Of a stretch of DNA of 26,051 bases, positions 1,202 through 24,981 are shown piece by piece. Origin of the DNA: a virus. Its lineage: Duplodnaviria; Heunggongvirae; Uroviricota; Caudoviricetes. The DNA lies in the IMG/VR virus record IMGVR_UViG_3300015186_000011, positions 1 through 26,051 of that record. One strand, written 5' to 3'. Under the pieces are notes generated by a model. That model was given only the letters and a program-made list of their open reading frames with translations. It did not search any database and had not been told where the DNA came from. Every line of letters starts with the position of its first letter. Positions within the stretch are counted from its first letter, which is position 1. A program made the translations under genes and the position numbers.

Positions 1202-1267
1202 ATTACCTGAAAAACCACATATGGATAGACAACCCATAAATACGAACAGATATTACCTTTCAGGTGA
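1202..1267. promoter_or_regulatory. Intergenic control module, copy 1: ATTACC-N5-AACCACATATG (1202-1223) plus dyad TTACC-N5-GGTGA (1253-1267) overlapping a TAGACA-17-GATATT promoter-like element
   Basis: Lies between the tailspike start (1148, minus) and the plus-strand accessory genes. The same two motifs recur at 21199-21276 upstream of the portal operon. -35 at 1226-1231, -10 at 1249-1254 (plus strand). Confidence 0.45.
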
Positions 1268-1300
1268 TTCGCAAAACGTGCTGGATAGCAAACAAATTAT

Positions 1301-1329
1301 TTGATACTGTATAAACATACAGTTATTGC
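1301..1329 (+). promoter_or_regulatory. SOS-regulated promoter: TTGATA-17-TATTGC with a LexA box filling the spacer
   Basis: TACTGTATAAACATACAGTT at 1305-1324 is CTGT-N8-ACAG and matches 17/20 of the LexA consensus TACTGTATATATATACAGTA. It sits 20 nt upstream of the ATG at 1344. Confidence 0.7.
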
Positions 1330-1343
1330 ATGGAGAAGATAAG

Positions 1344-1601
1344 ATGCAGCAGTATCACTATCCACTGGAAGACGGATTTACCGAAAGGATTCACACGCCG
1401 GGAGGCGTCAGATCACTAGTGGAGGGATCGCACTTGATGAAATTACTCCGGGATCTCGATAAGGATGGATTTAATGTCGATGGCCCACTTGCCGAACTGA
1501 CTGCACTGATTAACTACGTCACCAGCTCACAGATGTCTATGCAGGATCTGCAAACACATCTCGACTATTGTGCCGAACAATTACGAAAGCAAACCAGATA
1601 A
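1344..1601 (+). CDS. 85-aa stand-alone homologue of the C-terminal domain shared by the two antirepressors; candidate SOS-inducible antirepressor or modulator
   Basis: ATG at 1344 with GGAG at 1332-1335 (the track's TTG start at 1326 has no RBS). The sequence YHYPLEDGFTERIHTPGGV..LMKLL..L.KDGFNV.G..AELT....Y......L.D.QTH..Y aligns by eye at ~35-40% identity with the last ~80 aa of ORFs 1915-2607 and 3858-4802. Confidence 0.65.
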   Translation: MQQYHYPLEDGFTERIHTPGGVRSLVEGSHLMKLLRDLDKDGFNVDGPLAELTALINYVTSSQMSMQDLQTHLDYCAEQLRKQTR

Positions 1602-1639
1602 GGTTTGCAATTACCAAGCGGAGTGCTTATATTTACCTT

Positions 1640-1762
1640 TGCGGTAAATTTACATCGCACTCCTCTTGTGCCATAGTAATCGAGCACTGGCAAAATCCAG
1701 TGCCGGGATTGGTCTCCCGGATTACTACAGAGGCACATATGCCGCATAAGCGGTTTTTTTAT
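1640..1762 (+). ncRNA. Candidate ~120-nt sRNA, or a structured 3'UTR of the upstream gene
   Basis: Promoter-like TTGCAA (1604-1609)-18-TATATT (1628-1633). Dyad TTACC-N5-GGTAA at 1633-1647. Hairpins GCACTGG/CCAGTGC (1684-1703) and CGGGA/TCCCG (1704-1719). Weak terminator CCGC-ataa-GCGG plus T7 at 1742-1760. Only implausible ORFs overlap it. Confidence 0.3.
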
Positions 1763-1914
1763 GTGTAAAGCGCACCTATTCTATGGTGGGCTGTGTGGGG
1801 GCACCGAAAGGTGCGCCGGGTTCCTTTGTAGCCGGTAAGACCAACTCTGCACAGTTCACCACCATCTGATTGGTCTCAGCGGTGGTGATTAACCTAACTA
1901 CAAAGGTGATCGCC

Positions 1915-2607
1915 ATGAATACCAAACCTTCCATCTTTTCCTTTGAGTCATCCTGCCAGATCCGTATGTTCATGATTGACGGAGAACCTTGGTTTGTCAC
2001 CAAAGATGTGTGCAATGCTTTGAATATTGATGTTACACAAGCGAGAAAACTTGATAAAAAAGGCTGGAACAAAAAGGGGCTGTATTCAATACAGACCCCT
2101 GGTGGAATACAAGAACTATCCATCGTTTCAGAATCAGGTCTCTACATCCTTATTCTGCGTTGCAAAGAGGCAATGACTGAGGGAACGAGAGCATTCAGAT
2201 TTCTTGAATGGGTTACAGGTGAGGTTCTTCCTCAGATCCGCCGCACCGGAAGTTACATTAAAAACTCGCTCCCGCAGGAAGAACGCATAAAGATGGTTGC
2301 CGACCAGGTAGCCAACGCCACGGCGTCAGCAGTGATGCAGGCGATGAAGATAGAGAACAAAACCTACAGTGCCCCACTGAAGCCCGGCTACCGCAGCCTG
2401 ATTCATTCGCCGTCTGGTGTTCTCGGCCTGACGGAGAACTCACTGCTGATGAATTTGCTGAACAAGTTACAGGAAGACGGGCACGATGTATCGGGCGCGG
2501 CAGCGGAGCTGACCACCATGTTCTGCTACATCGTCGGTGTGAGCAAATGCCTGCGTGATATCCAGACGCACGCGGAGTACATCAATGACAAGGCAGGGTT
2601 CTTCTGA
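1915..2607 (+). CDS. BRO-N domain antirepressor-like protein (230 aa) with the shared C-terminal domain
   Basis: ATG at 1915 preceded by AAGGTG. The N-terminus SIFSFESSCQIRMFMIDGEPWFVTKDVCNALNI...GGIQELSIVSESGLYILILRC...AFRFLEWVTGEVLPQIRRTGSY is the classic Bro-N pattern. The C-terminal 78 aa are nearly identical to those of the Ant homologue. Confidence 0.85.
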   Translation: MNTKPSIFSFESSCQIRMFMIDGEPWFVTKDVCNALNIDVTQARKLDKKGWNKKGLYSIQTPGGIQELSIVSESGLYILILRCKEAMTEGTRAFRFLEWVTGEVLPQIRRTGSYIKNSLPQEERIKMVADQVANATASAVMQAMKIENKTYSAPLKPGYRSLIHSPSGVLGLTENSLLMNLLNKLQEDGHDVSGAAAELTTMFCYIVGVSKCLRDIQTHAEYINDKAGFF

Positions 2608-2630
2608 CGGGCGGCGGCACATGGATGTGC
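2374..2630. repeat. Left arm of a 257-bp inverted repeat (partner 3835-4091)
   Basis: By-eye alignment with the reverse complement of 3835-4091 shows about 11 mismatches and no indels. It covers the last ~78 codons, the stop and a GGCACA-n4-TGTGC hairpin. Nearly all differences are synonymous (one K/Q change). Confidence 0.9.
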
Positions 2631-2692
2631 CTACAATTATCAATAATTGTTTACACTCGTTGCAGTTAAAAGCATTATACTCATGTTTAAAA

Positions 2693-2707
2693 TTACCCGA
2701 TTGGTAA
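2693..2707. promoter_or_regulatory. TTACC-N5-GGTAA dyad (site E) upstream of the cassette genes
   Basis: TTACCcgattGGTAA lies 22 nt before the ATG at 2729. A possible TTTACA (2650-2655)-17-CATTAT promoter lies upstream. Confidence 0.4.
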
Positions 2708-2728
2708 AGTCGATTGGTTGAGGTTCAT

Positions 2729-3055
2729 ATGAGCAGAAGATATGTCAAGGAGCTGGCTATAGAGTCTGGCACCCCTTTGGGTATCGTTCCTGGCTCCAAC
2801 TATGCCAAGGCTTTAAACCGAGACTCTGTCGTCAAAGTTATATCAAGAGACATGAATATGGTCGGAGACGATCTCAGACGGTCAGAAAATCGTGTTTATG
2901 CTGAATATATAGTAAAGAACGGAAAAAAAATTGCAGCGCCTGCTGGCGGAAAATGGGCAATAGTGACAGGGAAAAACTCAAATGCAAGAGGAAAACCAGA
3001 AGCTAAAGGAATGTCCTTCGACAAATATGCAAAAATCTATTGGGCAACCAAGTGA
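2729..3055 (+). CDS. Hypothetical 108-aa basic protein, first gene of the cassette
   Basis: ATG at 2729 with GAGGT 5 nt upstream (the track's start at 2714 lacks an RBS). I recognise no family. The C-terminus is Lys-rich. Confidence 0.55.
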   Translation: MSRRYVKELAIESGTPLGIVPGSNYAKALNRDSVVKVISRDMNMVGDDLRRSENRVYAEYIVKNGKKIAAPAGGKWAIVTGKNSNARGKPEAKGMSFDKYAKIYWATK

Positions 3056-3530
3056 TAACGAAGAAACTGAGTTCGAGGAAGTTGAGGAAGGGCTAAGTAA
3101 CGAGATCATTCAACACCCAGATGCCTTCACAAGAGTTCTTGATCGCCCTGAAATTCAGGAGATAGTTGTCGCTCACCATGCGTTTCAGGGTCCGCTTCCT
3201 CCCCCCTATCTGCTTCGCGGGTATCAGGATATTTTACCTGATGCCCCCGAACGCATCTTCCAGCTGACGGAGAAGGAGTTTGCTCACCGCCAGAAAATGG
3301 AGGAAAAGGCACTTGACGGGGCTATTAATAGAGATAAACGTGGGCAGTGGTTTGGCCTGAGTGCAACTATTTTTACAGTAGCTTGTGCAACATTATTAGG
3401 TTTAACAGGTCATGAAGTTCTAGCTGGCACAGTGATCGGTACAGTTGTTGCAGTGGCTGGTATTTTTGTTCTCAGACAAAAACCGAGCTTAAAGAAGAAC
3501 GCTGAAGATAAAACACCAGAAGAAGAGTAA
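2982..3530 (+). CDS. DUF2335-like membrane protein (start ambiguous: 2982 or 3027)
   Basis: An acidic N-terminus is followed by HHAFQGPLPPPYLLRGYQDILPDAPERIFQLTEKEFAHRQKME and two C-terminal TM helices. From memory this is the DUF2335 signature. It overlaps the upstream ORF in another frame. Confidence 0.7.
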   Translation: MQEENQKLKECPSTNMQKSIGQPSDNEETEFEEVEEGLSNEIIQHPDAFTRVLDRPEIQEIVVAHHAFQGPLPPPYLLRGYQDILPDAPERIFQLTEKEFAHRQKMEEKALDGAINRDKRGQWFGLSATIFTVACATLLGLTGHEVLAGTVIGTVVAVAGIFVLRQKPSLKKNAEDKTPEEE

Positions 3531-3808: not shown

Positions 3809-3820
3809 GTGACATGTCAC
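3809..3820. repeat. 12-bp perfect palindrome GTGACATGTCAC (site 1 of 3)
   Basis: Exact copies occur at 22255-22266 and 24520-24531. This one abuts the terminator hairpin at 3791-3808. Confidence 0.9.
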
Positions 3821-3834
3821 GATAGTTTCGTTTT

Positions 3835-4091
3835 GCACATCCCTGTGCCGCCGCCCGTCAGAAGAACCCTGCCTTGTCGTTGATGTACTCCGCGTGCGTC
3901 TGGATATCACGCAGGCATTTGCTCACACCAACGATGTAACAGAACATGGTGGTCAGCTCCGCCGCCGCGCCCGATACATCGTGCCCGTCTTCCTGTAACT
4001 GGTTCAGCAGATTCATCAGCAGTGAGTTCTCCGTCAGACCGAGAACACCAGACGGAGAATGAATCAGACTGCGGTAGCCGGGCTTCAATGG
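3835..4091. repeat. Right arm of the 257-bp inverted repeat (partner 2374-2630)
   Basis: See the left arm. It covers the 3' end of the ant homologue plus ~23 nt beyond its stop. Confidence 0.9.
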
Positions 4092-4802
4092 ATAACCATA
4101 ACATTTTGTCTGTGTTTTAATTGCCTCACGAAGCGCATCTAACATCTTGACTGCCACTTCATCATTCTCTGATGCAGATCCAGCAGGGAGATACTCCCCT
4201 TCAAGCGGAACCCGAGCAACAAGAGACAACGCTTCGGCAAATTGATCTTCACCAATTTCTTTGTACGAACAGCCAAAATGAGATTTCAGTGACGACCACA
4301 TGGTGATCATCGCCTTAGCCTGTTTTTCTTTTGGCAGAGACTGACCGCGACTCATGACGAGTTGTTTAATGGCTTCCTGCTGTTCAGTTGTTATTTTACC
4401 CGGCAACGCCTTTTTAGCTTTGCGTGGGTTAACCACATGGCCTTTAGTCCAGTACTCGTAGAGCACATCGTCACACTCTTCCTGATACTGGATTACCTTG
4501 TCGCGGATTTCAGGGCGGACTTTGTTAGGGCTGATGGTTTGCAGCCAACCTGCAAGTTTGCGTAAAGCAAGACAGATAACCAGACGACGCTGAGTATCAC
4601 CGGGGAGCTGAATGGTCATTTCGACCATGCAGCTCTTAAAGCGTTGTTGCAACTTGCGGAACTGCGTTTTCCAGTCCAGCCCCATACCTTCAACGACTGG
4701 TTTCATTGGGGTGTATGGTTCGCCGTTATGATTGACAACATAAAGCTCTGCGCCGTGGAATGGCACGTTGATAGTAGATACCGCTGTTGCTATACTCGTC
4801 AT
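3858..4802 (-). CDS. ant: Antirepressor, P22 Ant-type N-terminal domain (314 aa)
   Basis: VPFHGAELYVVNHNGEPYTPMKPVVEGMGLDWKTQFRKL...LRKLAGWL fits the P22_AR_N pattern from memory. It sits directly downstream of an Arc-like gene and opposite an Mnt-like gene, as in P22 immI. Confidence 0.85.
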   Translation of the reverse strand: MTSIATAVSTINVPFHGAELYVVNHNGEPYTPMKPVVEGMGLDWKTQFRKLQQRFKSCMVEMTIQLPGDTQRRLVICLALRKLAGWLQTISPNKVRPEIRDKVIQYQEECDDVLYEYWTKGHVVNPRKAKKALPGKITTEQQEAIKQLVMSRGQSLPKEKQAKAMITMWSSLKSHFGCSYKEIGEDQFAEALSLVARVPLEGEYLPAGSASENDEVAVKMLDALREAIKTQTKCYGYPLKPGYRSLIHSPSGVLGLTENSLLMNLLNQLQEDGHDVSGAAAELTTMFCYIVGVSKCLRDIQTHAEYINDKAGFF

Positions 4803-4877
4803 GTCGTTAATTCCTATACGTAGTTTTACGATACTGAAGCCCTGACGGTCTGGCCACCGTGGGGCTTCGCTGTTTTA
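4803..4877 (+). ncRNA. sar-like antisense RNA (~70 nt) covering the ant RBS and the arc-ant spacer
   Basis: A strong promoter, TTGATA (4768-4773)-17-TATACT (4791-4796), lies inside the first ant codons and points the other way. Predicted TSS is ~4803. A terminator hairpin at 4836-4868 is followed by GCTGTTTTA. Geometry and size mirror P22 sar. Confidence 0.5.
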
Positions 4878-5042
4878 TGCCACGCTATTCTTCTCACCAG
4901 TGAGTCCATACACTTTCCTCAGCTGATAGATAATCTCTGTATTGAACTTTCGGCATTCTTTTTCGCCATTTCTTTCAATAGCTAACTTCACATCGTCCGG
5001 AAAACGAACTCGTCGTTGACACATCTCTTTTGCTTTTTGCAT
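4875..5042 (-). CDS. arc: Arc-like ribbon-helix-helix repressor (55 aa)
   Basis: ATG at 5042 with AAGGAG 7 nt upstream (the track's start at 5063 lacks an RBS). RVRFPDDVKLAIERNGEKECRKFNTEIIYQLRKVYG parallels P22 Arc (FNLRWPREVLDLVRKVAEENGRSVNSEIYQRVMESF). Confidence 0.75.
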   Translation of the reverse strand: MQKAKEMCQRRVRFPDDVKLAIERNGEKECRKFNTEIIYQLRKVYGLTGEKNSVA

Positions 5043-5132
5043 TTCATATCTCCTTAGCCCCACCGTGGGGCAAAATAATTGTCACACCGTGCGTCATTGA
5101 TGTCAAGCACACGGTGAGGCATACTTCAATCA
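5043..5132. promoter_or_regulatory. Divergent overlapping promoters with RHH operators (Pant-like / Pmnt-like)
   Basis: Minus strand: TTGACA (5106-5101)-17-GACAAT (5083-5078). Plus strand: TTGATG (5097-5102)-17-CATACT (5120-5125). A 15-bp palindrome GCCCCAC-C-GTGGGGC sits at 5057-5071, at the predicted +1 of the ant promoter. CACCGTG (5085-5091) and CACGGTG (5110-5116) each lie in a promoter spacer. Confidence 0.6.
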
Positions 5133-5162
5133 TTGCAAGTAACTCAATATTTGGTGAAGAAC

Positions 5163-5594
5163 ATGAGCAGAGAAGATCCACAACTAAGGATCAGACTTCC
5201 CGTTGAAGTAAAAGAAAAAATAGAAATTTCTGCAAAAGCCAATAAGCGATCAATGAACGCTGAAATAGTACAACGTCTTGACACCAGCTTTCTGAAAGAT
5301 ATTCATGAAGATGACGTAATTTCTGCTTATGAAGCAAAAATTATTGCAAACAATGCACGACATGAAATATCAAATATTATTTTCAAAAGAACCTTTAATG
5401 AAATTAATAAGAAAATAACACTTGGACATACAAGTTTTTATATAAACCTTAATGACCTTGAACTGGAATCACTTGCAGATAATGATTACCAGATCATCTT
5501 TGAAAAAACATTTAATAAGCTCAATGAACTAGGTTACATCATCTGTGAAAACTCATGGGATGCAGATGGTTTTGGAATTGAAATACCTGAATAG
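5163..5594 (+). CDS. mnt: Mnt-like RHH repressor with an extra AT-rich C-terminal domain (143 aa)
   Basis: MSREDPQLRIRLPVEVKEKIEISAKANKRSMNAEIVQRL aligns with P22 Mnt MARDDPHFNFRMPMEVREKLKFRAEANGRSMNSELLQIV (from memory). The ATG at 5163 follows GGTGA. P22 Mnt is only 83 aa, so the last ~90 aa are additional. Confidence 0.8.
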   Translation: MSREDPQLRIRLPVEVKEKIEISAKANKRSMNAEIVQRLDTSFLKDIHEDDVISAYEAKIIANNARHEISNIIFKRTFNEINKKITLGHTSFYINLNDLELESLADNDYQIIFEKTFNKLNELGYIICENSWDADGFGIEIPE

Positions 5595-5684: not shown

Positions 5685-6248
5685 TTGAAAACCATATCTA
5701 TATTAAAGGTTGCATTAGGCGTCGCTATTATTTTGACTCTCTCAATATTGTTTTATTTTTACCACAAAAAAACTGCTATTGCTCTTGATGGTCACGCGGC
5801 AAACTCATTTTTCTCAGAGTACATAGTGCCGCTATCAGGAAGCGGTATAACAAATAAATATACTGACTATGACATCAAATATGGAATTGATGATGGGGAG
5901 ACTATTGTATTACATGTAATCATTAAAAACCTAATGACAGTAAATAAAAATACAGACTTCAACGATAAAAATACAATACATCACAACAACAGCAAAACAT
6001 TAATTTCTTATAGTAGCAACATCTATACGGATAAATACCTAAAATACATATCAGAAGATACAATAAAAGAAACCCGCGAAAAGTTAAAAAACATATATTG
6101 TGCATCCGGCAGTTTTCACAAATTATCGCCGCAAGAGCGTTTATTCTACGAAGCAAGAAAACAACGTAAGTCAATAATATTACATTATTATGCTGATTCA
6201 GGGGAGTCACTCATATTTAATATTGGGGTTTCCCCTGAATCATGCTAA
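5685..6248 (+). CDS. AT-rich N-terminally anchored membrane protein (187 aa from TTG 5685; 196 aa from ATG 5658); SieA-position moron
   Basis: AAGGAG at 5672-5677 lies 7 nt before TTG 5685, giving MKTISILKVALGVAIILTLSILFYFYHKK (a signal anchor). The ATG at 5658 and the TTG at 5637 have no RBS. The region is visibly low in GC compared with its flanks. I recognise no family. Confidence 0.6.
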   Translation: MKTISILKVALGVAIILTLSILFYFYHKKTAIALDGHAANSFFSEYIVPLSGSGITNKYTDYDIKYGIDDGETIVLHVIIKNLMTVNKNTDFNDKNTIHHNNSKTLISYSSNIYTDKYLKYISEDTIKETREKLKNIYCASGSFHKLSPQERLFYEARKQRKSIILHYYADSGESLIFNIGVSPESC

Positions 6249-18977: not shown

Positions 18978-19274
18978 TCACTCCTGTTCACTGGCCTCTT
19001 TGGCCATCTTCAAATACTGTTCAGGGCAATGCGCCATAACGCGCTGAAACAGTTCCAGCGCCAGATTGCGTTGCCCCTCATTAAATGCCATTGCCATAGC
19101 GTCCATCGGTGAGATAGCGGAAAACACACGGCCTTTCTCCAGCACCGACCAGACAACGCGACGCCCCTGTTCACTGCTCATGACAAAGCGAATGTCATCA
19201 ATTTCACGCTGTGCCATGTCACGTTGTTTACGGGCGTTTTCTTCTTTCAGTTGATCATCTTCGTAATCTGTCAT
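18978..19274 (-). CDS. Small conserved head-module protein (98 aa)
   Basis: ATGA overlap with the portal stop (19274-19271). Charged helical protein of unknown function. Confidence 0.7.
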   Translation of the reverse strand: MTDYEDDQLKEENARKQRDMAQREIDDIRFVMSSEQGRRVVWSVLEKGRVFSAISPMDAMAMAFNEGQRNLALELFQRVMAHCPEQYLKMAKEASEQE

Positions 19275-20950
19275 TGTGATTGCCCACCCTGACCACTAAC
19301 TGCATTCGCCATAGCTGACAAAACACTCGGATCCGAAGTTTTAGCTTCGCTTAGCGTCTTGGCGCCCTGTGCCGCCGCCATTCCCATCGCCATCATTTGT
19401 TGCTGCTGTTGCTGCTGTGCCCGTTGCTGGCGAGCCTGCTCAACCTGTTCCTGCGGAACAATGACGGTTGGAGACACTCCGGACATATCAGCGAATGCAT
19501 CGATCGCCTGATCAACGTTGAGTTTGTCGAGAGCTTCTGGTTTCGCTTGCGCAAGTTGACCAATGAAGTTGACCGTAGACGCCAGACTGGACAGGCCGAT
19601 AGACTTCTGCGCCTGAGCCATGACGGAAATGTATTCGACCTTCAGGGGCATACCTTCCATCGCGTCAGGCGGTGGCGGCAGCATGTTTTTACGCACCATC
19701 ATCGAGAAAGCGCGGTCAATGAGAGGATTAAGACATTCGTCGTTCAGACGCTCCAGAACCGGCCCCAACATCAGAAGTTTTTCTTCTTTCATTTCGATCA
19801 CCGCTTCAACAGGCATCGAGCGGGTATTGATGTTCTGCAACATCATGAACAGATCGACAAAGTAGGCGCTGTTAATGATTTGACGAGTGTCCTGAATGTC
19901 TGCCACCAAATCTGCTGTACTGGGGTTAACCAGATAAGCAGGCCTGAAGCCATCCTGACCAGTAATCTGATCGATATACGTGATGTCGCCAGGAAGAAGG
20001 GAGGCGCGCTGATTCTTGAGGGAAGTCGGAGCAACCATCGGCGGATTGGTGGCTTTATCAATCAACTGCGACTTGCGCTTCTGGAGAAGCTGCAATGCCT
20101 TAACAGGTCCAAGCGCCAGCATACCCGGGCATGATGATCCATAAACATCTTCGCCATTAACTTCCCAGCGCGGAGCCATAATTGGAAACTCATCAAATCC
20201 GGACTCACGCAACAACTTGTCGTTATCGCCACCAACCTCGTAATAAACCGATTTGAATGGCTTGTTCTTGCTATCCAGCTTCGATGTATCGCGGTCAATG
20301 TTCGGGTAAACCGAATGCATCACGTCAATCCACTTCTCGTAGTTGCCGCTTTCCCACATGCTTTTTACGGATTCGCTGACGTTATTTAGCCCGAACTCCT
20401 GAACAAGCTGACGAACAGTCATAGAGAACTTGCGAAAACAGGTGTCAACACTGCCACGAGGTGAGTTAGCCAGGTAGTAACTGCCTATCGGGAATGGCAT
20501 TGTGCGAATGATGTCCTCGTCATCCTCCAGCACTGCCATTGCACCAGTGCTGTATGTGCCGAGGCTTCCGTATAACTGCGGAAGAGACTGGTAGAGATTC
20601 GACTTATTGAACATATCGTTCATGCGGTTCTGAACTGCCTCAAGCCACAACTTAACAGGGCCATAATCCATCATTTCAGGATCTGGCGTAGCCAGGCGAA
20701 ACCACGGACGCGCGGGGCTTGTGATGCCTGACATCATGCCGCTGGCGAGAGTGCGCGCCGCCATAGTCCCGGTCGAATCAATAATGCGTGTATTGCGCCG
20801 ATCGTTACGGTTGGCCTCAGAAGTCAGAAAGCGGGAACCACGCGGGTTGATGTAATCACTCAACTCGCGCCAGTGCGGCTCGAACGACTGACGCTCGCTT
20901 TCAAGTTGTGCGAACTGTTTGTTCAATCGCTCTTTAGTTGTTTCCGCCAT
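19271..20950 (-). CDS. Portal protein (559 aa)
   Basis: Size ~62 kDa and position upstream of scaffold/capsid. The C-terminal tail is Gln-rich. RBS GGAG lies 8 nt before the ATG at 20950. Confidence 0.85.
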   Translation of the reverse strand: MAETTKERLNKQFAQLESERQSFEPHWRELSDYINPRGSRFLTSEANRNDRRNTRIIDSTGTMAARTLASGMMSGITSPARPWFRLATPDPEMMDYGPVKLWLEAVQNRMNDMFNKSNLYQSLPQLYGSLGTYSTGAMAVLEDDEDIIRTMPFPIGSYYLANSPRGSVDTCFRKFSMTVRQLVQEFGLNNVSESVKSMWESGNYEKWIDVMHSVYPNIDRDTSKLDSKNKPFKSVYYEVGGDNDKLLRESGFDEFPIMAPRWEVNGEDVYGSSCPGMLALGPVKALQLLQKRKSQLIDKATNPPMVAPTSLKNQRASLLPGDITYIDQITGQDGFRPAYLVNPSTADLVADIQDTRQIINSAYFVDLFMMLQNINTRSMPVEAVIEMKEEKLLMLGPVLERLNDECLNPLIDRAFSMMVRKNMLPPPPDAMEGMPLKVEYISVMAQAQKSIGLSSLASTVNFIGQLAQAKPEALDKLNVDQAIDAFADMSGVSPTVIVPQEQVEQARQQRAQQQQQQQMMAMGMAAAQGAKTLSEAKTSDPSVLSAMANAVSGQGGQSQ

Positions 20951-21198: not shown

Positions 21199-21276
21199 AT
21201 TACCAATTTAACCACATATGATTTATTTATCGTAGAAGGTTGACATTTGACGCGTGAATTATTACCTTTCAGGTAA
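21199..21276. promoter_or_regulatory. Intergenic control module, copy 2: ATTACC-N5-AACCACATATG (21199-21220), TTGACA (21240-21245), perfect dyad TTACC-tttca-GGTAA (21262-21276)
   Basis: Same motif pair and order as 1202-1267. It lies between the divergent portal operon (minus) and the RNA locus (plus). Confidence 0.5.
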
Positions 21277-21286
21277 CTAAAGAGCT

Positions 21287-21593
21287 CATTCCGGCTACTA
21301 ACCTGACTGGCTTGTCGTTAAATTGAACAGGTGGAGTGAGATTTTATTTTGAGCAGTACGGCGTATGGCACATGCGCCGATAGCGGTCTGGATACGTTTA
21401 AGGGGCACCCTCCCTTGCTCGGGCAAACGAACCAGGTAGCCGGAATGTGCAAGTCGAGCGGTTTTATTCCGCGCACGGGGATTCACCATCCCGGCGATTC
21501 GGTGTGACGCCTCGGAAGAGACGAGGGTACAACGATGAGAGCATTTATGGAGCCGCGACAAAGTGTGGCGCCTTAACAGGCTAAGTGCTCTCA
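21287..21593 (+). ncRNA. Unclassified, highly structured RNA candidate forming the 5' leader of the tRNA transcript
   Basis: No credible ORF. A 12-bp perfect helix pairs 21287-21298 with 21436-21447. Hairpins at 21359-21379, 21417-21424 (C-UCGG-G), 21458-21472, 21478-21492 and 21510-21526. A 9-bp helix pairs 21536-21544 with 21585-21593 and ends 5 nt before the tRNA. The ends are approximate. Confidence 0.5.
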
Positions 21594-21598
21594 GCGTT

Positions 21599-21675
21599 GT
21601 GGCATTAGCTCAGTTGGACAGAGCAACCGCCTTCTAAGCGGTTGGTCGCAGGTTCGAATCCTGCATGCCACGCCA
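21599..21675 (+). tRNA. tRNA-Arg (anticodon UCU, reads AGA), CCA encoded
   Basis: Hand-folded cloverleaf: acceptor GTGGCAT/ATGCCAC, D arm GCTC-AGTTGGAC-AGAGC, anticodon arm ACCGC-CTTCTAA-GCGGT, variable loop TGGTC, T arm GCAGG-TTCGAAT-CCTGC, discriminator G, CCA. Confidence 0.95.
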
Positions 21676-22254: not shown

Positions 22255-22266
22255 GTGACATGTCAC
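22255..22266. repeat. 12-bp palindrome GTGACATGTCAC (site 2 of 3)
   Basis: An exact copy, 4 nt after the stop of the Gp49-like gene and 4 nt before the terminator hairpin. Confidence 0.9.
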
Positions 22267-22340: not shown

Positions 22341-23816
22341 TTAAGCATAGGGATCGTAATCTGTAATGGCCTTGCCTTGCTGGTTCTGCTGCCCGGGAAT
22401 TCGCAGACGCTTAGACACAGGGAACGCAAACGTCAGCAGTAGCGCATCGCCTTTACCCGGCGAACGCCCAAGCCGCTCCTTGATATCTTCCTTCGGTTCG
22501 ATAACGATTTTACCGTCCACTCGAACTTTGTACTCTGCCGCCGACAGGTCGTCCGCTGTTTCCTGGTCATCCAGCATGCCGCCCAGCCTCAGCCATGTCT
22601 TGCATGAGTTGAACATCTCCCCACGCTTGTTGAGCATCTGCGGGTCAGTAGACGCGCCACCGAACGGAACAAGTTGCCATGTGCGCCCCCAACCGTCACC
22701 GATTGACTTCAGCCCGGTACCGTAACCGAAGTCGATGAACACCGCGTCAGCCTGATACTGGTCTTCAAAGTCAGCGATACGCTTTGCCATAATCAGATCG
22801 TCAGTGGTCTTGTTGCCGGTCCACAGCACCTTACTGTGCAGCCCCTGCCGCAGATATATCACCGCGTCATCAACACCGGAGTATGCCGGGTCAACGCCGA
22901 TTATCACCGGAGCATGTGCAACCTGCGCAGCGGTGACCACCCGTTTCATTGCCTCGTCAGTAAGTCCGGTAGGGATAAACTGCAATTCAGATGCATCCGG
23001 GAATATGCCGCGCACACGGATTTTAACGAAGTCGCTATCTTCCCCGTAGTCATCAACCCATTTCTGCAACTGCTGTTTGTTAGTGCCTTCCACCGTCCGG
23101 CTGTCAATCTGCGCAGTTTTCCAGCGGTGTTTATATTTGCGGAAACATTCGCGGAAACGTCCGGTATTACGCGTCGGGTTTCCGAACGCCACCCAGATAA
23201 TCTCAGTGTCTTCGTCCGTTAGCGCACCCTCGGCAACTTCCCACACCAGATCCGCAATGTTCGACGCTTCATCGAATACCACAATGATGCGTTTGCGCTC
23301 GTTGTGTAGTCCGGCGAATGCCTCAGTGTTGTGCTCAGACCAGGGGATTGCGTCAGCTCGCCACCGCTTGTCGTGTCCAGGATCATTGCTGTACATCGCG
23401 GTAGCGGTACAGGTAAACCAGTCTTTCGTGATAGCAAGGTTCGACCACTTGATAATTTCCGGCCAGGTCTTCGTTCGTAGCTGGTTGTCGGTGTTGGCGG
23501 TCACCACAACCTTACAATCCTCGCAAGTGGACATGCCCCAGTTGATCAGCATTGAGATGAATGCGGATTTACCAATACCGTGACCAGAAGCACGTGCCAG
23601 CATAAGCGGCTGATATCGCGTCTCTGGATTCTGCAGGTGATCACGTATCTCTCGGAACGCATCAGCCTGCCATTGACGTGGGCCGGTAGCATGTGCCAGT
23701 TCAGTCCCCTCTTCCCCCCACGGGAACGCATAGAGGGCATAGCCAAGCGGATCGTGAGTGAACCCTGCAATATCCTCGATCAACTGCTCTTCAGGAGATA
23801 ACGCTGTATCTGTCAC
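22341..23816 (-). CDS. terL: Terminase large subunit (491 aa)
   Basis: Walker A-like ARASGHGIGKSAF and Walker B IIVVFDEASN. A C-terminal RNaseH-like nuclease region (IIGVDPAYSGVDDAVIY). GTG start in a GTGA overlap with TerS. Confidence 0.95.
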   Translation of the reverse strand: MTDTALSPEEQLIEDIAGFTHDPLGYALYAFPWGEEGTELAHATGPRQWQADAFREIRDHLQNPETRYQPLMLARASGHGIGKSAFISMLINWGMSTCEDCKVVVTANTDNQLRTKTWPEIIKWSNLAITKDWFTCTATAMYSNDPGHDKRWRADAIPWSEHNTEAFAGLHNERKRIIVVFDEASNIADLVWEVAEGALTDEDTEIIWVAFGNPTRNTGRFRECFRKYKHRWKTAQIDSRTVEGTNKQQLQKWVDDYGEDSDFVKIRVRGIFPDASELQFIPTGLTDEAMKRVVTAAQVAHAPVIIGVDPAYSGVDDAVIYLRQGLHSKVLWTGNKTTDDLIMAKRIADFEDQYQADAVFIDFGYGTGLKSIGDGWGRTWQLVPFGGASTDPQMLNKRGEMFNSCKTWLRLGGMLDDQETADDLSAAEYKVRVDGKIVIEPKEDIKERLGRSPGKGDALLLTFAFPVSKRLRIPGQQNQQGKAITDYDPYA

Positions 23817-24409
23817 TGATTACCATCCTGACGTTCTTTGAGTCGCTTCCTGGCTGCCGCTATGCGATCAGCAATTGTCACATTCACATTAACATCCAGG
23901 CGTTCTTTGAATGCGTTGACGTCGACGTGCTTACCAATCAGTTCGAGGTTCTTCACCTTGTCAGGCCATTTAATTTTTTTGAGGATTGTCTCTATCGAAT
24001 CCTCGTTCATGTTCATGATGGTCGATGACAGATCAAAGCCACTAAGCGTAGTGCGCCAGATTTTCGGCCACTCGCGGATTGGCTTAAGGCTCCCATCGTC
24101 GTTGAGGATATCAATCACGTCCATCTGGTCGATCTCCACCAGGCGCATGAGAACGTAATCGGCACTGACGCGCATTCGTTTGTTGCGCTCCTCCATCAAC
24201 TCGGCAATCCGTTTTTGAATGCGTTCATCGCGCATCATGACACTGGCTTTAACTGCCGCTGTATTTGGGGAGAATCCTGCGTTAATCGCTGCCTGAGTCT
24301 GGTTTTCAGGCGTTTTGATGTATGACTGGCAATAAGCCTCCTGCATTGCGGTTAGTGGCTTAAATTGCGTTGATTTGCGTTTATAGGTTTTAGGTTCAGC
24401 AGGCATCAT
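23813..24409 (-). CDS. terS: Terminase small subunit (198 aa)
   Basis: LTAMQEAYCQSYIKTPENQTQAAINAGFSPNTAAVKASVMMRDERIQKRI is a Terminase_2-type HTH region. The start is set at ATGATG 24409/24406 after GGTGG, because the track's upstream extension runs through a terminator hairpin. Confidence 0.85.
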   Translation of the reverse strand: MMPAEPKTYKRKSTQFKPLTAMQEAYCQSYIKTPENQTQAAINAGFSPNTAAVKASVMMRDERIQKRIAELMEERNKRMRVSADYVLMRLVEIDQMDVIDILNDDGSLKPIREWPKIWRTTLSGFDLSSTIMNMNEDSIETILKKIKWPDKVKNLELIGKHVDVNAFKERLDVNVNVTIADRIAAARKRLKERQDGNQ

Positions 24410-24426
24410 AACCACCCTGGTAATTG

Positions 24427-24441
24427 TTACCGTTGTGGTAA
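24427..24441. promoter_or_regulatory. TTACC-N5-GGTAA dyad (site D) in the terS leader, within alternating GGTAA/TTACC repeats (24419-24447)
   Basis: GGTAA-ttg-TTACC-gttgt-GGTAA-tag-TACC lies between the terminator at 24453-24478 and the terS RBS. Confidence 0.4.
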
Positions 24442-24452
24442 TAGTACCATGC

Positions 24453-24478
24453 AAAATAAAGCCGCCATAGTTGGCGGC
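24453..24478 (-). terminator. Rho-independent terminator immediately upstream of terS
   Basis: Minus strand: GCCGCCA-acua-UGGCGGC followed by UUUAUUUU. Confidence 0.85.
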
Positions 24479-24519
24479 AGTATTCAAAACCCATCAAATT
24501 CATCATGCATAATCTACTC

Positions 24520-24531
24520 GTGACATGTCAC
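24520..24531. repeat. 12-bp palindrome GTGACATGTCAC (site 3 of 3)
   Basis: An exact copy that overlaps the stop codon of the 112-aa gene. It lies in the 17-nt spacer of a weak minus-strand promoter-like pair, TTAATA (24539-24534) / TAGATT (24516-24511). Confidence 0.9.
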
Positions 24532-24866
24532 ACTATTAATTTAGTTTCATGCCAGCCTTTAGTCACCCAGCATTGCGAGTCACCATTACACGGGCATGAA
24601 TTAACGGGAACTTTCTCGCCGCACTTACCGCAACGTTTTCTGCTAATCGATTTTATACGCCCGCGCACGCGTGCATCATCCTGGCGGATCAGTAACGCTA
24701 TATACTCCCCAAATTCGTAAGGCGCACGCCCGGGGCGACGCGTGGCACAGTTACGCTCCAGCATTTCCTGCTCCTGCTTATCCAGCACCAGTTCAATTTT
24801 GCGCTCACCGGCGGCGGACTGCCGAGCGCGCTGCGCGGCTTTGCGTTCTGCGGGGGATTTAGCCAC
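24528..24866 (-). CDS. 112-aa basic protein with a C-terminal Cys-rich (zinc-ribbon-like) motif; possible regulator
   Basis: GTG at 24866 lies 8 nt after TGGAG (the track's GTG at 24875 is too close to the RBS). The C-terminus is RKRCGKCGEKVPVNSCPCNGDSQC and the N-terminus SPAERKAAQRARQ is Arg-rich. It is the last gene before the late operon. Confidence 0.65.
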   Translation of the reverse strand: MAKSPAERKAAQRARQSAAGERKIELVLDKQEQEMLERNCATRRPGRAPYEFGEYIALLIRQDDARVRGRIKSISRKRCGKCGEKVPVNSCPCNGDSQCWVTKGWHETKLIV

Positions 24867-24981
24867 GAATCGCACTCCACGCCAGATTGATTAATGACTC
24901 CCAGGTAATATAAACCCGGATACCAGCAGCCAGGCCGAAACCAATCACCATGGCATAAAGCAGAGCGTTGCACTTGTTCAT
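24859..24981 (-). CDS. Unlisted 40-aa hydrophobic mini-protein
   Basis: Hand translation: MNKCNALLYAMVIGFGLAAGIRVYITWESLINLAWSAIRG. ATG at 24981 in a TGATG overlap with the upstream stop, with AGGAGG 5 nt upstream. It falls below the track's length cut-off. Confidence 0.45.
   Translation of the reverse strand: MNKCNALLYAMVIGFGLAAGIRVYITWESLINLAWSAIRG

Follow-up and report, generated by a model that had tools for sequence, protein, structure and literature searches.

The DNA stretch analysed here comes from the IMG/VR virus record IMGVR_UViG_3300015186_000011, and its whole length of 26,051 nucleotides (nt) is referred to as the window. It carries a set of palindromic dyads of the form TTACC-N5-GGTAA, and we propose, with a probability of about 0.88, that these dyads are the DNA operators of the main lysogeny repressor Rep, a protein of the epsilon15 gp38/SPC32H Rep family. 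The window derives from an epsilon15/phiV10-like temperate podophage of the genus Uetakevirus, and most of it is 96-97% identical to the Escherichia phages TL-2011b, EC.W1-9, ZX5, and phiV10, whose records run in the reverse orientation. The best match in the phage and E. coli collections was ~97% identical, and a prophage carrying at least 80% of the window was found in 42 of 5426 complete E. coli genomes. The late genes of the window, from terS through the tail fibre, lie on the minus strand. A gene model was built for the window from its relatives and from Rfam and Pfam matches, leaving 8.2% of the DNA as non-coding, and the window was compared with seven complete genomes from the hosts E. 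coli, Salmonella, Enterobacter, and Klebsiella, giving a set of eight sequences.

Perfect copies of the dyad are located at 1633-1647 (site C), 2693-2707 (site E), 21262-21276 (site A), and 24427-24441 (site D), and a copy with one mismatch is located at 1253-1267 (site B), exactly as listed in an earlier note that was made from the sequence of the window. The chance expectation of 0.02-0.03 perfect copies given there agrees with 26051/4^10. No perfect dyad was found in 100 dinucleotide-preserving shuffles of the window (4 observed vs 0.00 in the shuffles), which, together with the repressor annotation of epsilon15 described below, bears out the proposal of an operator rather than a chance repeat. 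When up to one mismatch was allowed, six sites were observed against 0.39 expected, namely the four perfect sites, site B, and a sixth site, D', at 24409-24423, which was absent from the list of the earlier note. Under the gene model, all six sites are intergenic, in line with the claim that no perfect site lies in coding DNA, and all 16 matches with two mismatches are coding. Site D falls inside a mechanically listed open reading frame (ORF) at 23813-24487, but this ORF also crosses a terminator, and the start of terS is annotated 3' of the dyads in both TL-2011b and epsilon15, so the site can still be regarded as intergenic. The comparison with relatives and the analysis of intergenic enrichment, both of which had been suggested as checks, showed that the dyad is conserved at orthologous positions and far more frequent than random expectation. 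Scans of the complete relatives that allowed up to one mismatch gave 14-19 sites per genome, where fewer than 1 was expected, and each complete related genome contains 8-11 perfect copies. In a de novo count of every 5-mer dyad with spacers of 0-12, TTACC-N5-GGTAA ranked first in 8/8 sequences. The sites with at most one mismatch were intergenic in 14/14 cases in TL-2011b, 14/15 in epsilon15, and 13/14 in BUCT554, where non-coding DNA makes up 6-17% of the genome (P = 1e-11 to 1e-16).

The epsilon15 RefSeq record (NC_004775.2) connects this dyad with the lysogeny repressor. It contains seven features labelled 'protein_bind, repressor, lysogeny' with the sequence (A)TTACC-N5-GGTAA(T), and three of them are orthologous to sites of the window: 12-27, upstream of terS, corresponds to site D; 2931-2947, upstream of gp3, to site A; and 19895-19911, between gp19/ant and the tail-fibre gene, to site B. 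Our scan of epsilon15 found 11 perfect dyads, and 15 with at most one mismatch, compared with the seven marked in the record; some of the unmarked ones are found in the rep-gp39 interval and ahead of the lysis genes. Sites C and E have no ortholog in epsilon15 because the modules that carry them are missing from it, and both are kept in relatives from E. coli, Enterobacter, and Klebsiella. The rep gene is flanked by dyads in every complete relative examined. It is bracketed by dyads at 5172 and 5234 on one side and at 5946 and 5994 on the other in TL-2011b (gp10), by 31953 and 32015 versus 32727 and 32775 in phiV10 (p40), by 13311 and 13373 versus 14085 and 14133 in the prophage MSB1_8B (the closest complete relative, ~97% identical), and by three dyads on each side in SPC32H. 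The dyads of the relatives also precede the early-left, replication-distal, lysis, int, terS, and structural units. The regulator had been pictured in the earlier note as a coordinator of accessory plus-strand units, and this picture gives way to that of the main repressor, whose gene is flanked by the dyads and whose putative sites precede most units. The suggested extension to the late operon is supported by the position of site D upstream of terS, and the statement that the regulator could not be identified in the window is explained by the location of the rep gene outside it.

Rep is a protein of ~195 amino acids (aa) that contains two helix-turn-helix domains. The TL-2011b protein is a homologue of SPC32H Rep (PDB 5D50_A, E = 6.6e-42). 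The E. coli-type and Salmonella-type Rep proteins are ~42% identical and are associated with identical half-sites, and the motif NLVNRW (residues 36-41, in the N-terminal domain) is invariant across their alignment. The antirepressor Ant encoded in the window is ~87% identical to that of SPC32H. Judging from these similarities, E. coli-type and Salmonella-type phages may be cross-immune at the operator level. According to secondary accounts, SPC32H Rep binds palindromic sites as a tetramer with two DNA-binding units, rather than as the dimer assumed in the earlier note, and tetrameric Ant disassembles it. When the homologous repressor of phage ZX5 was overexpressed, holin and endolysin transcripts fell by over 99.9% (PMC9782041); no operator was defined in that paper, and no operator sequence was found in other papers citing SPC32H. 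The dyad is already known as a repressor-binding site in epsilon15, and the Rep-Ant switch is structurally solved in SPC32H; the only new part is that sites C and E extend the Rep regulon to acquired cassettes.

Another protein, such as the Cro-like protein, the 115-aa gp49-like regulator of the window, or a host factor, might be the main reader of the dyads, and we regard this as improbable. Cro and CI share their operators in lambdoid phages, and the Cro-like gene, which is divergent from rep, also has dyads adjoining it. The gene of the 115-aa regulator (24528-24875), assigned to PHROG 536 'transcriptional regulator', is located directly upstream of site D, and the use of one motif over four host genera would fit a conserved host factor as well. 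These observations are outweighed by the bracketing of rep on both sides and by the repressor label in the epsilon15 record. In 49 kb of E. coli chromosome and prophage around MSB1_8B, 15 of 16 sites were within the prophage, contrary to a general host regulon, and sharing of the dyads by the Cro-like protein would supplement the Rep model rather than displace it. Among the regulators encoded within the window, the Arc-domain, arc-like, and 115-aa gp49-like proteins were considered as candidate binders and rejected, as the distribution of the motif points to rep.

Several points weigh against the assignment of the dyads to Rep and against a simple form of its action. The proposed link between Rep and the dyad is based on how epsilon15 is annotated in RefSeq, on where the sites lie, and on homology, and the rep gene itself lies outside the 26-kb window and was deduced from ~97% identical relatives. 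Every genome examined uses the same dyad. A Rep homologue was found in 40 phage records, which are all Uetakevirus-like and include no heteroimmune relative with a Rep variant. The Cro-like protein may share the dyads. The promoters and start sites at the operators of the window are predictions, and the promoter scan called no promoter at sites A or D under its criteria. In addition, the most highly conserved promoter-like elements oriented toward the late genes and ant lie 57-81 bp downstream of sites A and B, so simple occlusion alone would not account for repression there.

The variation of the sites bears on whether they act as DNA or as RNA, and it points to selection on the DNA sequence. 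A role at the RNA level, in which 5-bp leader hairpins would act as signals for processing, stability, or translation, with D' sequestering the terS ribosome-binding site (RBS) as one example, had been put forward as an alternative and is disfavoured to the point of being very improbable. The hairpin can indeed form at every site in either transcript, as claimed, the terS RBS is overlapped by D', and nearby leaders carry RNase III sites in the epsilon15 RefSeq annotation, but the predicted hairpins are weak (-1.7 to -6.8 kcal/mol), and transcription would not cover several of the sites, which are located at the predicted +1, upstream of it, or at the auxiliary -62 positions described below. 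The stem sequence is constant at 70 perfect sites over the eight genomes, and 42 uncompensated single-mismatch variants were found as against 7 compensated ones. Two of the latter are in the window and are coding, and comparison of coordinates with gene tables placed the remaining five inside annotated genes, so apparently none is intergenic. Of the 42 single mismatches, 31 affect the outer half-site positions 1-2, and position 3 is never affected, the pattern expected of protein contacts. Half-sites remain constant while spacers change between orthologs; site C has the spacers TTTGC, TTTTC, GCAAA, CACAG, and AAAAT, and the site B orthologs likewise keep their half-sites with varying spacers. 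The operator class is defined by a palindrome of 15-17 bp with an A/T-rich spacer, and the window sites agree with it. In the consensus of the 70 sites, the flanking base is A in 64% and the central base is A/T in 96%, and the spacers of the window sites have T or A at the centre. Membership in a class of structured leader RNAs, marked by compensatory pairing with free sequence, was rejected on the same counts (70 perfect, 42 uncompensated, 7 compensated). Chance clustering or a functionless mobile repeat, in favour of which the AT-rich intergenic context is the sole point, has a negligible probability and is refuted by the shuffles, none of which held a perfect site, by the de novo dyad ranking and the intergenic statistics, and by the retention of orthologous positions across genera with variable spacers and a fixed phasing of 62, 50, 48, and 18 bp.

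To describe how Rep operators may be arranged with promoters, the relatives provide a reference. At the early-left promoter of TL-2011b (TTGACA-17-AATCAT|TACC), the final T of the -10 element is the first T of the dyad, and the operator is centred near +1. The nin-like promoter of TL-2011b repeats this -10-fused geometry, and at both promoters an auxiliary operator is located 62 bp upstream; the 62-bp pairing at the two loci is conserved in 7/7 complete genomes. The right-hand rep-proximal sites are 48 bp apart in the E. coli and Enterobacter phages and are spaced by 17 and 30 bp in the Salmonella phages. The same fused geometry at sites C, E, and D suggests that they are classical occlusion operators. 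The earlier claim that the sites lie at the 5' ends of transcription units and overlap -10-like hexamers is in agreement with the positions seen here.

Site C (TTACCTTTGCGGTAA) is associated with two predicted promoters of the isrK-C4-ant unit, both on the plus strand. The -10 element of P1 (TTGCAA-17-TATATT, 1605-1633) ends with the first T of the site, which is therefore centred near the P1 start; the same site is centred at about -44 of P2 and abuts its -35 element. P2 (TTTACA-17-(TG)CATAGT, 1649-1677) has a predicted start at 1684, which is the 5' end of isrK, and the block with its extended -10 element, CTTGTGCCATAGT, shows no change among 6 relatives. A -35 element TTGnnn, at 17-18 bp from a dyad-fused TAnnAT, is readable in 5/6 aligned sequences with unrelated spacers, a count that does not cover phiV10. 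Rfam matches above the gathering score identified isrK (1684-1760, plus strand, 74.7 bits) and the C4 antisense RNA (1779-1866, plus strand, 78.6 bits), which are followed by a Bro-N antirepressor gene (1915-2607; Bro-N Pfam E = 1.7e-13). The Bro-N protein shares 42% identity with the small SPC32H-type Ant over its C-terminal 74 residues (149-222; E = 6e-20), and it is probably a second Rep-directed antirepressor, under control of the isrK/C4 RNAs and of Rep. Site C is present wherever the isrK-C4-BroN module occurs in Uetakeviruses, with orthologs at 20497 in phiV10, 21393 in Tyrion, 34160 in Kp4865-1, 42611 in MSB1_8B, and 34385 in TL-2011b. The homology of isrK-C4 to Stx phages and APSE-1 starts at the isrK 5' end, indicating that the promoter bearing site C is specific to this phage lineage.

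Site E (TTACCCGATTGGTAA) is fused to a promoter-like element found by the promoter scan (TTAAAA-16-TAAAAT, 2666-2693, plus strand) in the arrangement TAAAAT|TACC, and is located upstream of a cassette (2729-3530) composed of a 108-aa ORF and a DUF2335 membrane protein gene. The site is identical in the prophage MSB1_8B (41551). After ~2655, the promoter and cassette of TL-2011b are non-homologous to those of the window, yet there too the -10 element (TACTAT) is fused to a perfect dyad. Morons are as a rule expressed in the lysogen, which makes it unusual for each of these cassettes to have its own Rep dyad ahead of it. The slot after the Bro-N ant gene is a point of cassette exchange (2655-3530 in the window, 33093-33347 in TL-2011b, and 41203-43702 in MSB1_8B). 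It holds the 108-aa ORF and DUF2335 protein gene in the window and in MSB1_8B, and a small ORF with a YafO-family toxin gene in TL-2011b; MSB1_8B carries an additional YafO cassette elsewhere.

Site D (TTACCGTTGTGGTAA) is located between a terminator (24478->24461) and terS, and is fused to a predicted extended -10 element on the minus strand (TGGTACTAT|TACC, 24449->24441). The arrangement TGnTAnTAT-TTACC is kept in 8/8 sequences. Site D' (TAACCACCCTGGTAA), with one mismatch, is 18 bp from D, covers the terS RBS, and abuts the ATG; a second one-mismatch dyad at 18-20 bp from the site D ortholog was found in 6/7 relatives scanned, and none was found in Kp4865-1. The phiV10 terS coding sequence (41-715), which lies just past the terminator, is annotated from an upstream start and thus includes both operators, and judging from the position of the dyads this start is probably mis-annotated.

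Site A (TTACCTTTCAGGTAA) is located where the gp3/portal structural operon, on the minus strand, and the tRNA-Arg unit, on the plus strand, diverge from each other. A promoter-like element read manually (TTGACA-17-TACCTT, 21240-21268, plus strand) points toward the variable tRNA-Arg/gp49_66 unit and has its -10 element within the site; TTGACA at 17 bp from TACCYT is kept in 7/7 aligned relatives. On the other side, sequence conservation toward gp3 starts exactly at operator A. The ~320 nt between operator A and tRNA-Arg (21277-21598) contain short ORFs only and are apparently non-coding. The first ~90 nt of this leader align closely with TL-2011b and phiV10, and an RNase III site is annotated in the corresponding region of epsilon15. 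The Rfam search of the ~300-nt leader between site A and tRNA-Arg found the tRNA only, which is the Rfam match at 21599-21675.

In the interval between ant and the minus-strand tail-fibre gene (ATG at 1147) is site B (TTACCTTTCAGGTGA), which has its mismatch in the GGTGA arm and whose ortholog is a perfect dyad in epsilon15, Tyrion, 65FD, BUCT554, and the prophage MSB1_8B. It overlaps a predicted promoter, TAGACA-17-GATATT (1226-1254), by a GATATT|ACC fusion, and this promoter occurs only in the E. coli phages and is not conserved in the Salmonella phages. Upstream of ant there is a LexA box (TACTGTATAAACATACAGT, 1305-1323), a perfect match with 0.02 expected, which is kept in 7 relatives and overlaps the -10-like TACTGT of the conserved ant promoter (TGGATA-17-TACTGT, with the -35-like TGGATA at 1282-1287). 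Operator B is ~45 bp upstream of this box. The ant gene (1344-1601, plus strand) encodes an SPC32H-type antirepressor of 85 aa that matches PDB 5D50 chain E, 'Anti-repressor protein' (E = 4e-47). From the position of the box, ant appears to be gated by LexA, and the ant gene of SPC32H is reportedly LexA-controlled. For both A and B, the overlap with -10-like hexamers described in the earlier note was found, and the promoter under their control is less clear than assumed there.

Downstream of sites A and B, the promoter scan and manual reading found no canonical sigma-70 promoter facing gp3 or the tail-fibre gene. Two minus-strand copies of a late box, ATATGTGGTT-N5-GGTAAT(A), are located at 21199-21219, upstream of the gp3/portal operon, and at 1202-1222, upstream of the tail-fibre gene. 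The box contains one Rep half-site, and there are exactly two copies of it per sequence, both for the window and for the 7 complete genomes. From box centre to operator centre the distance is 62 bp at A and 50 bp at B in 8/8 sequences. The late box may be a late promoter, an activator site, or a secondary half-operator, and its conserved distances are a hint that a Rep tetramer could bridge operator and box.

We infer from the sequence that Rep binds each of the window sites and occludes promoters whose start sites are as predicted. In the prophage state, Rep would be bound at (A)TTACC-N5-GGTAA(T), and as the dyad starts on the last base of the -10 element at most sites, the bound protein would sit over the -10/+1 region and keep RNA polymerase out. 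At site C it would shut P1 of the isrK-C4-BroN antirepressor unit, at site E the cassette promoter, and at site D the extended -10 promoter from which terS and the late operon would be read, while D' would cover the terS RBS. Site B, between the LexA-gated ant promoter and the tail-fibre leader, might act by promoter occlusion in the E. coli phages, and site A would be an operator in a divergent control region, its left arm serving as the -10 element of the TTGACA-17-TACCTT promoter toward the tRNA-Arg unit. Rep would thereby lock nearly every transcription unit directly, including the genes of its own antagonists. Upon SOS induction, LexA would leave 1305-1323, Ant would be made, Rep would be taken off the DNA, and all units would open together.

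A more elaborate version, in which Rep forms a genome-wide lock by fixed-phase bridging (62, 50, and 48 bp, with the late boxes) and silences the late genes directly, without a regulatory cascade in between, is tentative, and we consider it unlikely in this full form. Each Rep tetramer would then hold together a strong operator and a partner site at a distance of 62, 50, or 48 bp, and the late boxes with their half-sites would be possible partner sites for the structural and tail-fibre operons. Rep at site C, at -44 of P2, might also activate P2(isrK) and so stimulate the isrK/C4 RNAs, keeping the second antirepressor untranslated in lysogens, in the way that CI bound at OR2 switches on PRM in lambda.

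A P22-like immI module is complete in the window (3858-5594). It consists of a P22_AR_N Ant gene (3858-4802, minus strand), the sar RNA (4804-4871, an Rfam match), an arc-like gene (4875-5063, minus strand), and the divergent gene of a 153-aa Arc-domain protein (5133-5594). No TTACC-N5-GGTAA with at most one mismatch was found in 3858-5594, and the module appears to be self-contained, outside the Rep regulon described here. The phage of the window carries three antirepressor-type modules. A second perfect palindrome, GTGACATGTCAC, was also found in 3 copies (0.07 expected), which are located at 3' ends or convergent junctions: 3809-3820, after the DUF2335 cassette and facing the P22-type ant; 22255-22266, after gp49_66 and facing terL; and 24520-24531, at the stop of the gp49-like regulator gene, just before the terminator and P(terS). 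A copy with one mismatch is at 19211-19222. The equivalent positions are occupied in epsilon15 (2142, 19517, 39612) and in other relatives.

The dyad may serve as an aid to the annotation of the common E. coli Uetakevirus prophages, in which it is a reliable marker of transcription-unit starts, and it corrects at least one gene start, that of the phiV10 terS coding sequence containing the operators. The master repressor appears to be in direct control of nearly every transcription unit. Putative Rep operators are placed ahead of the genes of its two likely antagonists, namely Ant, gated by LexA, and the BroN-Ant fusion, gated by isrK/C4, and new cassettes seem to bring or gain a -10-fused Rep operator.

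The closest known system is the Rep-Ant switch of epsilon15 and SPC32H (PDB 5D50/5D4Z), which uses the same palindrome as the window. In epsilon15, as in the window, operators precede terS and gp3, and another separates ant from the tail-fibre gene. A LexA box ahead of ant is a further shared feature, and the repressor and antirepressor families of SPC32H are homologous to those of the window phage and its relatives. The window phage differs from epsilon15 in having extra units placed under putative Rep control, namely isrK-C4-BroN (site C) and the cassette (site E), and the E. coli Rep is only ~42% identical to that of the Salmonella phages. The C1 repressor of P1/P7 also has dispersed operators, and the immI operon c4-icd-ant is controlled at Op51. 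The resemblance to P1 C1 lies in one master repressor with a dozen or more scattered operators, one of them at a C4-antisense/antirepressor operon with tandem promoters, and the layout of P1 and P2 of isrK resembles P51a/P51b of phage P1 immI as well as lambda CI at OR2/PRM. The operators of C1 are asymmetric 17-mers, whereas the sites of the window are symmetric dyads, and C1 is not known to be related to Rep; the window phage also integrates at guaA and has an early region that looks lambdoid. Its resemblance to P1 C1 is functional only and not a matter of membership. Like lambda OL/OR, which are 17-bp sites of twofold symmetry, the dyads lie over promoters to either side of the repressor gene, and as with lambda CI, the sites are paired at a fixed phasing that an oligomeric repressor could bridge. 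In lambda, the operators are confined to the immunity region and the late genes are reached through an antitermination cascade, whereas here dyads are also found at the late, lysis, int, and accessory units. Lambda CI is inactivated by RecA-stimulated cleavage, whereas Rep is inactivated by an antirepressor according to secondary accounts. The P22 immI system, with its Mnt/Arc operators, ant, and sar RNA, has its counterpart in the module of the window, which is without a Rep dyad. The dyad system belongs to neither the P1 C1 nor the lambda CI family and is a member of the epsilon15-like set of Rep operators.

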